Made by a program: the position numbers
Shown: piece by piece, positions 37,001-40,000 of the stretch
Position numbering within the stretch: position 1 is the stretch's first letter
How the letters are laid out: each line of letters starts with the position of its first letter
Assembly: GCF_056746865.1 (NCBI RefSeq)
Contig: NZ_CM163382.1
Strand: one strand, 5' to 3'
Length of the DNA: 64,000 bases

Positions 37001-40000
37001 ATTTGGATTTGAGATTGAAGGGACTGGCAAGAAGTACGCATTACGTAATGGTGAATATGTCGATGCGTATTATATGGCGCGGGTGAAGTAAGATAGTGCC
37101 CTTTTTCTGAGATGGAAAAAGGGTGTCATTCAAAATCGGCATACCTTCCTTTAAGGTATTTATTTTCCCAATAAATATATAAGATTTACCTCATAATTAC
37201 GTCCTAAAGTGTAATATTTTATTTTTTAATATATACGCCTACAATTTCCTGGAGTAAATAAATAACAATTAACAAGCATAATAGTGCCATTGATAAAATA
37301 GCATGCCATAAAAGGACTTTTCATGGATGAGTAATATTGTTTACCTGACAGTAACGGGAGAACAACAAGGAAGCATCTCCGCAGGTTGTGGGACTTCTGA
37401 GTCTACAGGTAATCGCTGGCAGAGCGGGCATGAGGATGAAATATTTACATTCTCACTCTTAAATAGTATTACTAATACGGGGCTTGGTTCACAGTTCCAT
37501 GGTATAACATTTTGTAAATTAATTGATAAAAGCACTCCATTATTTATTAATTCCATTAACAATAATGAACAATTATTTATGGAATTTGACTTCTATCGAA
37601 TAAATAGATTTGGTAGATGGGAAAAGTATTATTATATACAACTAAGAGGCGCTTTTTTATCGGCTATTCATCATCAGATCATTGAAAATCAACTGGATAC
37701 AGAAACATTAACTGTTAGTTATGAATTTATCCTCTGTCAACATCTTATCGCAAATACCGAGTTCAGCTATTTGGCACTCCCTGAAAATTATAACTGTTTG
37801 TTTTTACCAAATTCAAAAAACCAAACAAATAATCGTTTCAAAACGTTAAACAGCAAAGCTATTGGCAGGCTACTTGCTGCTGGTGGCGTATACAATGGGA
37901 ACATTGAAGGATTCAGAGATACTGCGGAAAAACTGGGTGGAGATGCAATAAAAGGCTATGATCAAATACTAAATGAAAAAACAGCGGGCATAGCGATAGC
38001 AACAGCATCTATTCTTTTAACAAAGCGTTCTAATGTTGATACATATACAGAAATAAATAGTTACTTAGGCAAACTTAGAGGTCAACAAAAACTTCTTGAT
38101 GGTATAGACATAATAGAAATAATATACATTAAGAGACCTTCAAAAGACTTAGCTAACTTACGAAAGGAGTTTAATAAAACTGTAAGAAAAAATTTTCTTA
38201 TCAAACTTGCAAAAACCTCCGAAGCATCTGAAAGATTCAACGCCGAAGACCTTTTAAGAATGAGAAAGGGCAATGTTCCTCTAAATTATAATGTTCACCA
38301 TAAACTATCTCTAGATGATGGTGGTACTAATGATTTCGAAAATTTAGTATTAATCGAAAACGAACCATATCATAAAGTTTTTACTAACATGCAATCACGA
38401 ATAGCTAAGGGAGTATTAGTAGGTAGACTGGCCCCCTGAATCTCCAGACAACCAATATCACTTAAATAAGTGATAGTCTTAATACTAGTTTTTAGACTAG
38501 TCATTGGAGAGCAGATGATTGATGTCTTAGGACCGGAGAAACGCAGACGGCGTACTACACAGGAAAAGATCGCTATTGTTCAGCAGAGTTTTGAACCGGG
38601 AATGACGGTCTCCCTTGTTGCCCGGCAACACGGTGTGGCAGCCAGCCAGTTATTTCTCTGGCGCAAGCAATACCAGGAGGGAAGTCTTACTGCTGTGGCC
38701 GCAGGAGAGCAGGTCGTTCCTGCCTCTGAACTTGCTGCTGCCATGAAGCAGATTAAAGAACTCCAGCGCCTGCTCGGCAAAAAAACGATGGAAAATGAAC
38801 TCCTTAAAGAAGCCGTTGAATACGGGCGTGCAAAAAAGTGGATAGCGCACGCGCCCTTATTGCCCGGGGATGGGGAGTAAGCTTAGTCAGCCGTTGTCTC
38901 CGGGTGTCGCGTGCGCAGTTGCACGTCATTCTCAGACGAACCGATGACTGGAAAGATGGTCGCCGCAGCCGTCACTCAGATGATACGGATGTGCTTCTCC
39001 GTATACACCATGTTATCGGAGAGCTGCCCACGTATGGTTATCGTCGGGTATGGGCGCTGCTTCGCAGACAGGCCGAACTTGATGGTATGCCTGCGATCAA
39101 TGCCAAACGTGTTTACCGGATCATGCGCCAGAATGCGCTGTTGCTTGAGCGAAAAACCGCTGTACCGCCATCGAAACGGGCACATACTGGCAAAGTGGCC
39201 GTGAAAGAAAGCAATCAACGATGGTGCTCTGACGGGTTCGAGTTCCGCTGTGATAACGGAGAAAAACTGCGAGTCACGTTCGCGCTGGACTGCTGTGACC
39301 GTGAGGCACTGCACTGGGCAGTCACTACGGGCGGCTTCGACAGTGAAACAGTACAGGACGTAATGCTGGGAGCGGTGGAACGCCGCTTCGGCAACGAGCT
39401 TCCGGCGTCTCCAGTAGAGTGGCTGACGGATAATGGTTCATGCTACCGGGCTAATGAAACACGGCAGTTTGCCCGGATGTTGGGGCTTGAACCGAAGAAC
39501 ACGGCGGTGCGGAGTCCGGAGAGTAACGGCATAGCAGAGAGCTTCGTGAAAACGATAAAGCGTGACTACATCAGTATCATGCCTAAACCAGACGGGTTAA
39601 CGGCAGCAAAGAACCTTGCAGAGGCGTTCGAGCATTATAACGAATGGCATCCGCATAGTGCACTGGGTTATCGCTCGCCACGGGAATATCTACGGCAGCG
39701 GGCCAGTAATGGGTTAAGTGATAACAGGTGTCTGGAAATATAGGGGCAAATCCAGTAGGTGAAAGCAAAATCACTCCCTGGGCCATTCCATCTGGCTCAA
39801 TTTATCCTCCCATGAAAAATATTATGGAACCCACAAAATGATGACTAAAACCCAAATAAATAAATTAAAAAAAATGATGAATGATTTAGACTATCCATTT
39901 GAAGCACCGCTCAAGGAATCATTTATTGAAAGTATAATCCAAATAGAATTTAATTCTAATTCAACTAATTGCCTGGAGAAATTATGTAATGAAGTTAGTA

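Follow-up and report, generated by a model that had tools for sequence, protein, structure and literature searches.

An apparently recent IS2 insertion in yhhZ, a putative orphan T6SS effector gene of Escherichia coli, upstream of an intact yrhA

Among the closest described counterparts of the gene pair studied here is Hcp-ET1/ETI1. According to secondary papers on the work of Ma et al. 2017, Hcp-ET1 (Hcp with extended toxin) acts as an HNH DNase that T6SS2 delivers and that ETI1, encoded directly downstream, neutralises (PMC6730261, PMC6099711, bioRxiv 2024.03.05.583533). In E. coli K-12, yhhZ and yrhA are described as an operon with promoters upstream of yhhZ, in a region without a terminator (PMC12428005). 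The IS1 that the sequence-only reading of the present DNA had placed in the K-12 yrhA is indeed there, as IS1E (b3443, a pseudogene; PMC12428005). As for IS2, its right inverted repeat (IRR) carries the outward −35 of the minicircle junction promoter Pjunc, which works only with a −10 exactly 17 bp further downstream (PMC3299598), and hybrid promoters have been documented for ampC (Jaurin and Normark 1983), acrEF, and neoR, in each of which an IS2 end lies upstream of the gene and co-oriented with it (PMC9330008).

We analysed a window of 64 kb (the whole stretch of DNA under study), in which the same two-gene locus lies between yhhY and yrhB/ggt and, as in K-12, an IS is oriented with the operon and breaks one partner of the pair (PMC12428005). 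The two cases differ in the element and in the gene that was hit: K-12 has an IS1 of 768 bp with a 9-bp duplication at nt ~390 of yrhA and an intact yhhZ, whereas in the present strain an IS2 of 1331 bp, with a 5-bp duplication, sits in the toxin gene and yrhA is the intact partner. The resemblance to Hcp-ET1/ETI1, as those papers describe the latter, is that of an orphan Hcp-HNH DNase outside T6SS clusters with an immunity gene directly downstream; the difference is that the effector gene is interrupted in the present strain, and the likeness to YhhZ is one of descriptions. The explanation we favour, to which we give a probability of roughly 0.85 as a whole, is that of a recent IS2 transposition that probably inactivated YhhZ and lowered the expression of yrhA, in an islet undergoing neutral decay. 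The features that bear on it are listed in Table 1.

Table 1. Features of the interrupted yhhZ–yrhA locus and other IS insertion sites in the gene pair. Positions are those of the window unless a gene or the locus is named.
Feature	Position	Strand	Basis or remark
Truncated yhhZ' ORF, 370 aa: 366 native codons + 4 IS2 codons (RLAP), TGA	37327..38439	+	ORF; Hcp domain and HNH motif inside
Target-site duplication, left GTAGG copy, 5 bp	38419..38423		sequence
Complete IS2 isoform, IS3 family, 1331 bp	38424..39754	+	co-oriented with yhhZ and yrhA; 95.8% to K-12 IS2A, without indels
IRL of IS2, 42 bp, encloses yhhZ' stop codon (38437-38439)	38424..38465	+	repeat arm 38433-38465; length from PMC3299598
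insC / orfA, 121 aa, IS2 regulatory protein	38515..38880	+	NF006928; identical to K-12 InsC1
A6G (AAAAAAG) site, at insC/insD overlap	38832..38838	+	sequence
insD / orfB frame, 301 aa, DDE transposase part	38838..39743	+	NF006918
IRR of IS2, 41 bp, bears outward −35 candidate TGGAAA at 39733-39738	39714..39754	+	length from PMC3299598
Target-site duplication, right GTAGG copy, 5 bp	39755..39759		sequence
Orphaned yhhZ 3' remnant: codon 366 third base, last 26 codons ESKITPWAIPSGSIYPPMKNIMEPTK, stop	39760..39841	+	conserved beta-strand, residues 368-376
yrhA, intact, 164 aa, presumed cognate immunity gene	39838..40332	+	NF038335 'YrhA family', 127.9 bits
yrhB, 94 aa, Imm35-family immunity-type gene, end of AT-rich islet, untouched by insertion	40782..41066	+	Pfam PF15567 Imm35, E 5.2e-22
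IS1	yhhZ nt ~133		ET734
IS1, two sites	yhhZ nt ~528; locus nt 1485 (in yrhA)		LH13-b
IS1	yhhZ nt ~891		E100341
IS1	yhhZ nt 939		P0008 allele
IS1	yhhZ nt ~1091		PI24 (NZ_CP074012.1)
IS1	locus nt 1517 (in yrhA)		Res13
IS1E	locus nt ~1568 (in yrhA)		K-12

The element has every feature that marks a member of IS2: its length, its repeats, the 5-bp duplication, and two overlapping ORFs with an A6G site. It begins with TAGACTGGCC and finishes with GGCAAATCCA (38424-39754), and the ungapped core of its inverted repeats (38433-38465 with 39714-39746; 33 nt, 79% complementary) fits the published lengths of 42 bp for IRL and 41 bp for IRR (PMC3299598). The insC product matches NCBIfam NF006928 ('IS2 repressor TnpA') with 276 bits (cut-off 229), and that of insD matches NF006918 ('IS2 transposase TnpB') with 708 bits (cut-off 597). 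The A6G at 38832 we take to be the programmed −1 frameshift site that fuses orfA to orfB, as is established for IS2 and the IS3 family. Compared with K-12 IS2A, all 1331 bp are colinear with 56 substitutions; the ends, including the first 87 bp, are identical, InsC shows no difference, and InsD differs from InsD1 at 10 aa. By the ISfinder convention, isoforms share about 95% identity or more, a level that the present copy reaches at the borderline. Copies that are at least 99% identical to it occur in 1,780 records, and identical or 99.9% identical ones, annotated as IS3 family transposase, are widespread. All coordinates and sequences given in the sequence-only reading proved exact to the base.

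The insertion interrupts yhhZ after codon 366, separating nt 1097 from nt 1098, and the product now ends VLVGRLAP*. When the element and one GTAGG are removed, joining 38423 to 39760 yields a 392-aa ORF ending VLVGESKITPWAIPSGSIYPPMKNIMEPTK*, and the reconstructed 1670-bp yhhZ–yrhA locus aligns in one piece and with 100% identity to intact loci, e.g., that of strain 118UI. Intact alleles matching the reconstruction occur in many complete genomes, and GTAGG is in single copy at the empty site of the relatives. The ORF and the reconstruction agree that IS2 shortened the gene by 26 codons, and the proposed check of aligning the restored junction to uninterrupted alleles upheld that interpretation. 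A matching pair of 5-mers would arise by accident with a probability of ~1/1024; taken together with the exact recovery of a known allele, this excludes coincidence. The 5-bp target would have been duplicated by the pathway usual for IS2 (copy-out, minicircle, paste-in).

The comparison with relatives bears on the age of the event. Strain 118UI is colinear with the window for 62.7 kb, in which we count 4 SNPs and a single structural difference, the IS2 insertion; dozens of genomes share the 25 kb of the upstream flank at 100% identity, and every one of them has the empty site. When 5,426 complete genomes of E. coli were searched by megablast with the whole interrupted locus, none proved to carry the yhhZ::IS2 insertion, and the exact-sequence index holds no match to the 370-aa product; we conclude from these two results that the insertion is recent and private. 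The lone match covering at least 80% of the interrupted locus, in strain L37, is a composite locus that resembles K-12, with IS1 in yrhA and yhhZ uninterrupted. An IS2 isoform copy would have transposed into yhhZ in a clonal lineage of E. coli; the site is empty in every sequenced relative. Being private, the insertion could serve as a strain-specific marker.

One could suppose instead that the assembler misplaced an IS2 copy in yhhZ, given that most E. coli carry several copies of IS2 (median of 4 places per genome) and that the junction is on record in no other genome or contig. We give this almost no weight: a full-length element with intact ends and an exact 5-bp duplication is a signature of transposition that does not arise from repeat mis-joins, and both flanks are perfectly colinear with the relatives. 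Judged from the sequence, the interruption is a recent, strain-private pseudogenisation, ordinary in kind.

What the truncation does to the protein depends on the part that was lost. YhhZ has the two domains by which an Hcp-ET is recognised, an N-terminal Hcp and a C-terminal toxin domain (HNH / His-Me finger DNase). The N-terminal Hcp (TssD) domain is found by TIGR03344 (118.5 bits, cut-off 58.9, residues 1-147) and by Pfam PF05638 (E 3.8e-11), and the full-length model matched Hcp crystal structures, weakly, with Foldseek. At the other end, PF01844 matches residues 322-343 (E 0.013), and YhhZ has been classed among the His-Me finger nucleases (PMC5714182). The full-length AF2 model is poor in the Hcp part (pLDDT 20-37), and the C-terminal domain was successfully re-modelled alone. 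The interrupted gene would encode a protein with native residues up to 366, followed by RLAP, that keeps the HH...N...H motif and lacks the C-terminal strand of the nuclease. Some 130 residues of the nuclease domain are retained along with the catalytic motif (HH at 324-325, N335/N339, H349), which is invariant in orthologs. The lost tail is itself conserved in orthologs of 51-74% identity: 17 of the 26 residues are conserved (ESKxTPWAIPSGSIYP), with K369, W373, and Y381 invariant, and it is modelled as a strand (368-376) with pLDDT >90 for residues 367-385. Disorder is predicted for the last 7 residues, and the final stretch PMKNIMEPT is absent from orthologs.

These data bear on whether the insertion is functionally silent, with nuclease activity and T6SS delivery kept, yrhA served by read-through, and the phenotype unchanged. 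We find this rather doubtful. The position of H324, H325, N335, N339, and H349 and of the following helix upstream of the break speaks for it, as do the disorder of the last residues and the orthologs that do without the final stretch, but the loss includes the invariant residues and the confidently modelled strand, and removing an integral strand would usually destabilise a small domain. The truncated YhhZ is thus most likely destabilised or inactive, to judge from the loss of the conserved strand, and what remains would be a pseudogene. For annotation, this means that yhhZ in the present strain is best recorded as a pseudogene interrupted by IS2 and that the 82-bp 3' remnant is not a separate gene.

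The reading of yhhZ and yrhA as a toxin/immunity pair, already made from the sequence, is a reasonable one, with the Hcp and HNH fold of YhhZ, the Imm35 family of YrhB, and the literature on Hcp-ET1/ETI1 on its side. Strain 55989, named in that literature as an Hcp-ET1 carrier, has an intact yhhZ–yrhA pair at the same locus. From this locus and from the descriptions in the secondary papers, we infer that YhhZ is probably an orphan T6SS effector of the Hcp-ET1 type; the 64-kb window contains no T6SS genes. The presumed immunity role of YrhA rests on its position and on the literature, since Pfam and PDB searches returned no significant relative and the NCBIfam YrhA family is its only match; a literature search on yrhA and immunity gave nothing relevant. 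The start codon of yrhA overlaps the yhhZ stop by 4 bp (ATGA), and the gene is 100% identical to that of empty-site strains. The islet has a GC content of 33.7%, against 50.7% for the window.

The insertion would also affect yrhA, by placing 1.3 kb of IS2 between the gene and the operon promoter and by abolishing its translational coupling to yhhZ. The sequence-only reading had suggested that the IS2 right end may now drive the immunity gene. This idea can be extended to an adaptive rewiring, in which the right-end −35 and the flank form a hybrid promoter for yrhA and, with the toxin disabled, the strain becomes 'immunity-only'. Part of it stands: IS2 has the orientation of yrhA, 83 bp separate its right end from the yrhA ATG downstream, the IRR bears the −35 of Pjunc (PMC3299598), and the promoters at ampC, acrEF, and neoR are precedents (PMC9330008). 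In these precedents the flank supplies a working −10 with the optimal spacer of 17 bp, whereas the present strain has none, and here the gene starts 83 bp away. The hexamers at 16, 17, and 18 bp from TGGAAA (39733) are GTAGGT, TAGGTG, and AGGTGA, and none has both A2 and T6; Pjunc strictly needs a 17-bp spacer followed by a proper −10 (PMC3299598). A consensus promoter scan found nothing at the IS2/flank junction, and promoter-like sites in the region are as many as expected from shuffling (12 vs 11.7). The pairing that makes a hybrid promoter, in which an outward −35 of the IS is followed after 16-18 bp by a functional −10 from the flank, is thus not seen; a weak candidate, GGGGCA-17-CAAAAT, with 7 of 12 matches, lies across the junction. 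Two observations on other strains also count against rewiring: their IS elements strike yrhA too (3 in 495 bp vs 6 in 1179 bp for yhhZ), and the disruption of yrhA beside an intact yhhZ is tolerated in K-12, which speaks against immunity being under strong selection at the locus. We therefore regard adaptive rewiring as unlikely. Reduced rather than raised expression of yrhA is the more likely outcome, given polarity and the lost translational coupling.

A terminator-like hairpin at 39779-39799, within the yhhZ remnant, was discounted: it is also present in intact alleles, and we do not treat it as meaningful because the region has fewer such matches than shuffled sequence. Read-through from IS2 into yrhA could occur.

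The claim that different IS elements struck the pair in separate events turned out to be stronger than first made. Beyond that of K-12, there are at least 7 further independent IS1 insertions in the pair, and at least 9 distinct insertion sites in its 1.67 kb when the present IS2 and the K-12 IS1E are counted (Table 1). Four of the other IS1-disrupted loci surfaced by chance from the query with the P0008 junction, a junction (IS1 at 939) of which no identical copy was found among complete genomes. With 6 sites in the 1179 bp of yhhZ and 3 in the 495 bp of yrhA, yhhZ and yrhA have been struck at similar densities, and the immunity gene is therefore not preferentially spared. The earlier statement that the insertion spared it accordingly holds for the yrhA ORF, which is intact and 100% identical to its relatives, but not as selective sparing.

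The closest of these insertions is that of PI24, an independent event 6 bp upstream of the present site (duplication GGGAATATT, yhhZ nt 1083-1091). Its product, likewise 370 aa long, retains the HNH motif and lacks the same tail, and yrhA is intact there too; the differences are that the element is an IS1 in the opposite orientation and that the yhhZ allele has 98.5% identity. Two insertions 6 bp apart, both with 370-aa products in which the Hcp domain and the HNH motif persist and only the conserved C-terminal strand is missing, could reflect selection, either for a tail-less effector, e.g., one that lacks an active DNase fold and yet serves as an Hcp tube subunit, or for an uncoupled expression of immunity, in which transcription borne by the IS separates immunity from toxin. 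If either were true, IS insertion would be a recurrent way in which an orphan T6SS toxin becomes domesticated. We consider such selection very unlikely.

The numbers can be set against a uniform expectation. IS1 has ~10 copies per 5-Mb genome (median places), for which a 1.67-kb target should be hit in ~0.3% of genomes; of 3,812 genomes with the locus, at least 5 other than K-12 were IS-disrupted, and ~45 partial loci set the upper limit. The observed count is not above this expectation, and the idea of an IS hotspot at yhhZ–yrhA, considered together with that of selection, was dropped. The event would then fit a toxin/immunity islet, AT-rich and horizontally acquired, that is decaying neutrally and whose repeated IS hits in other strains are about as dense as non-essential DNA would lead one to expect. 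It reveals no new mechanism, element, or system, and its biological interest is modest: it adds one more data point to the natural IS interruptions of the AT-rich yhhZ–yrhA(–yrhB) islet of E. coli, where toxin and immunity genes have both been struck at a density compatible with neutral decay.

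We read the sequence of 37000-41000 and the list of ORFs, which confirmed all coordinates of the sequence-only reading, including an IS2 flanked by a target duplication that removes the last 26 codons of yhhZ: the element ends, the ORFs, the GTAGG copies and the reconstructed allele bear this out. Exactly 1331 bp (38424-39754) separate the two GTAGG copies, starting with TAGACTGGCCCCC and ending with GGGGCAAATCCA, and the inverted-repeat core fits the published 42-bp IRL and 41-bp IRR of IS2 (PMC3299598). Because its alignment to the K-12 IS2A is gapless (56 substitutions, 95.8% identity), with identical first 87 and last 26 bases and an identical InsC (InsD differs at 10 residues), the element is an intact isoform of IS2. 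At ≥99% identity it has copies in 1,780 records, and the best matches lie on large plasmids. The identical or 99.9%-identical matches are mostly on plasmids of 83-289 kb whose host isolates came from poultry, swine, sewage and humans, hence a plasmid may have introduced this isoform to the lineage.

Features of the window and IS insertion sites placed on the reconstructed 1670-bp yhhZ-yrhA locus (L, genome locus; P, protein)
Feature	Position	Strand	Details
ES036 (CssrF) sRNA	11499-11541	-	Rfam 43.6 bits (gathering score 37.6); downstream of glpD
Chaperone-usher fimbrial operon	~11560-19120	-	between glpD and glgP (118UI annotation)
RyhB sRNA	36387-36451	-	Rfam RF00057, 83 bits; between yhhX and yhhY
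Interrupted yhhZ ORF	37327-38439		370 aa
GTAGG copies	38419-38423; 39755-39759
IS2 inverted repeats, ungapped core	38433-38465 / 39714-39746		79% complementary
IS2 orfA (insC)	38515-38880		121 aa; NCBIfam 'IS2 repressor TnpA', 276 bits, above curated cut-off
AAAAAAG motif	38832		within orfA/orfB overlap
IS2 orfB frame (insD)	38838-39743		301 aa; NCBIfam 'IS2 transposase TnpB', 708 bits, above curated cut-off
yrhA	39838-40332		ORF intact
yrhD counterpart	40418-40543	+	41-aa ORF
yrhB	40782-41066	+	Pfam Imm35, E 5e-22; two genes downstream
IS1, ET734 (L010)	yhhZ nt ~133		in yhhZ
IS1, LH13-b (L014)	yhhZ nt ~528		in yhhZ
IS1, E100341 (L017)	yhhZ nt ~891		in yhhZ
IS1, P0008 allele	yhhZ nt 939		in yhhZ, after codon 313; 77 nt read into IS1 end at contig edge
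IS1, PI24 (L015, NZ_CP074012.1)	yhhZ nt 1083-1091		in yhhZ; 370-aa product; 6 bp from IS2 site
IS2, window	after yhhZ nt 1097		in yhhZ; duplication nt 1093-1097
IS1, LH13-b (L014), second copy	locus nt 1485		in yrhA; with deletion into yrhB
IS1, Res13-Lact-PEA14-20 (L016)	locus nt 1517		in yrhA
IS1E, K-12 and L37	locus nt ~1568		in yrhA

The interrupted protein ends ..KGVLVG-RLAP*, with its stop codon within IRL, and once 38423 is joined to 39760, the encoded protein has 392 aa and ends ..VLVGESKITPWAIPSGSIYPPMKNIMEPTK*. The sequence-only reading had staked its reconstruction on the agreement of intact alleles with this junction, and they match it exactly (100% identity). The reconstructed segment as a whole is found in a single piece, at 100% identity, in many complete genomes, where it is annotated as an Hcp1-family T6SS effector (tssD/yhhZ) followed by yrhA. 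The entire 64-kb window is colinear with the E. coli strain 118UI, with 4 SNPs and the IS2 plus 5 bp as the sole structural difference, and the 25 kb of upstream flank are 100% identical in dozens of genomes, all with the empty site. Because relatives have the empty site, none of 5,426 complete genomes carries an IS2 insertion at this position, and the exact 370-aa product is absent from the exact-sequence index, the insertion is a recent one, private to this strain. The single high-coverage match, strain L37, was considered as a second carrier and rejected, as it is actually a K-12-like yrhA::IS1 composite. The source strain belongs to a common human-associated clone, possibly ST69-like according to the best-match table in PMC7952442.

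The N-terminus of YhhZ is firmly identified as an Hcp domain (TIGR03344, 118.5 bits; PF05638, E 3.8e-11) and its C-terminus shows weak similarity to HNH nucleases (PF01844, E 0.013; Cas8-HNH and pyocin S2, E 0.02-0.05). Orthologs from enterics including Citrobacter (51-74% identity) all retain the HH...N...N...H residues, and a classification of His-Me finger proteins places YhhZ in group 32, T6SS Hcp-nuclease (PMC5714182). Many homologs have only the Hcp part in common and carry other toxin domains, which is the usual pattern of polymorphic toxins. Hcp-ET1 appears in secondary sources as an orphan Hcp-HNH DNase that T6SS2 delivers and that ETI1, encoded directly downstream, neutralises; strain 55989 is named there as a carrier (PMC6730261; PMC6099711; bioRxiv 2024.03.05.583533). 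Since 55989 has an intact yhhZ-yrhA pair at the same locus as the window, Hcp-ET1 is, from these descriptions, very likely the equivalent of YhhZ.

The break falls 17 residues past H349, the last histidine of the catalytic motif, and so the beta-beta-alpha-metal core is retained. Conservation among orthologs and a modelled strand indicate that the 26 lost residues are not dispensable: the tail includes the conserved ESKxTPWAIPSGSIYP, with K369, W373 and Y381 invariant, and residues 368-376 form a beta-strand with pLDDT >90 in both predicted models. Modelled disorder is limited to the last 7 residues, and the closing PMKNIMEPT is missing from orthologs. The truncated nuclease domain is thus probably destabilised or inactive (roughly 60-70%).

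In K-12, yhhZ-yrhA is described as an operon transcribed from promoters upstream of yhhZ, in a region without terminator (PMC12428005). The native ATG of yrhA overlaps the stop codon of yhhZ (ATGA). Because translation of yhhZ now ends 1.4 kb short of yrhA, little translation would be expected over most of the IS2 orfB region given that frameshifting is infrequent, and the SD-like sequence preceding yrhA is weak, polarity and lost coupling are the default expectation for yrhA. The proposal that the right end of IS2 instead drives yrhA from a hybrid promoter has precedents at ampC, acrEF and neoR (PMC9330008), but the window junction lacks the matching layout. The IS2 junction promoter combines a -35 in IRR with a -10 that must lie exactly 17 bp downstream (PMC3299598). 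By this geometry the -35 is TGGAAA at 39733, and the hexamers 16, 17 and 18 bp from it (GTAGGT, TAGGTG and AGGTGA) never combine A2 with T6. The only other candidate spanning the junction, GGGGCA-17-CAAAAT, has 7/12 matches; a consensus scan found no promoter site at the yrhA-side junction, and promoter-like sites in the region are as many as expected from shuffling. The sequence thus gives the proposal no support, and the site does not look like a hybrid promoter.

Independent insertions elsewhere were found by sampling, giving nine mapped sites. These include the predicted IS1 in yrhA of K-12, an IS1E (PMC12428005), and agree with the earlier suggestion that the pair was hit independently. 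The yrhA ORF of the window was indeed spared, but immunity is not preferentially spared by IS, since site densities are alike: six in the 1179-bp yhhZ and three in the 495-bp yrhA (~5 vs ~6 per kb). Assuming ~10 IS1 copies per genome, a uniform expectation for the 1.67-kb target is ~0.3% of genomes; IS1-hit loci number at least 5 and at most ~45 among 3,812 genomes with the locus. This frequency is not above expectation, and we dropped the idea of a hotspot. The K-12 state, yhhZ intact and yrhA broken, is tolerated, and this too argues against strong selection at the locus. The window insertion is a strain-private allele in which both the element and the gene are already known, and represents ordinary IS-mediated gene decay.

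The IS1 of PI24 (NZ_CP074012.1 2733-3500, 768 bp, opposite orientation) has a 9-bp duplication, GGGAATATT, corresponding to window ~38409-38417, 6 bp upstream of the IS2 site. Its YhhZ ends ..KGILVMTPTY*, and the equal length is coincidental. With two events only, this proximity and shared outcome are a mildly curious anecdote. Besides PI24, at least six independent IS1 insertions in yhhZ or yrhA occur in natural isolates (L010, L011, L014, L016 and L017; L011 is GCA_019369795.1). The truncated P0008 belongs to a 90%-identity cluster whose 526 sequences come from draft assemblies. Another decay route is seen in P0006, a 348-aa YhhZ with an internal in-frame deletion of 44 residues (..SYLGKL|TKTSEAS..) that costs it a portion of the nuclease domain preceding the HNH motif. 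Public YhhZ-YrhA fusions of 552-556 aa (P0001, P0004 and P0005; 392 + 164 = 556) arise where the ATGA overlap is altered and the toxin reads into the immunity protein (..MEPHKMMTKTQ..); since their clusters hold only one or two sequences each, they most likely stem from sequencing or assembly errors.

The NCBIfam YrhA family is the sole match of YrhA, and no relatives were found in Pfam or PDB. By its domain match, YrhB is a clear Imm35 polymorphic-toxin immunity protein, so that the islet resembles a toxin gene with a row of immunity genes behind it. In K-12, yrhB is annotated as 'putative heat shock chaperone'. The islet has 33.7% GC (window, 50.7%) and, in the O104:H4 outbreak strain, has been labelled a genomic island (PMC3309015). 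Its yrhD is, in the 118UI annotation, an incomplete pseudogene missing the C-terminus; K-12 and 55989 have a 51-aa form. As K-12 does, the window has RyhB a short way upstream of the islet. The glpD-glgP interval is a variable region, since 55989 has there four unrelated genes, one for a PstS-family protein, in place of the fimbrial operon of the window lineage.
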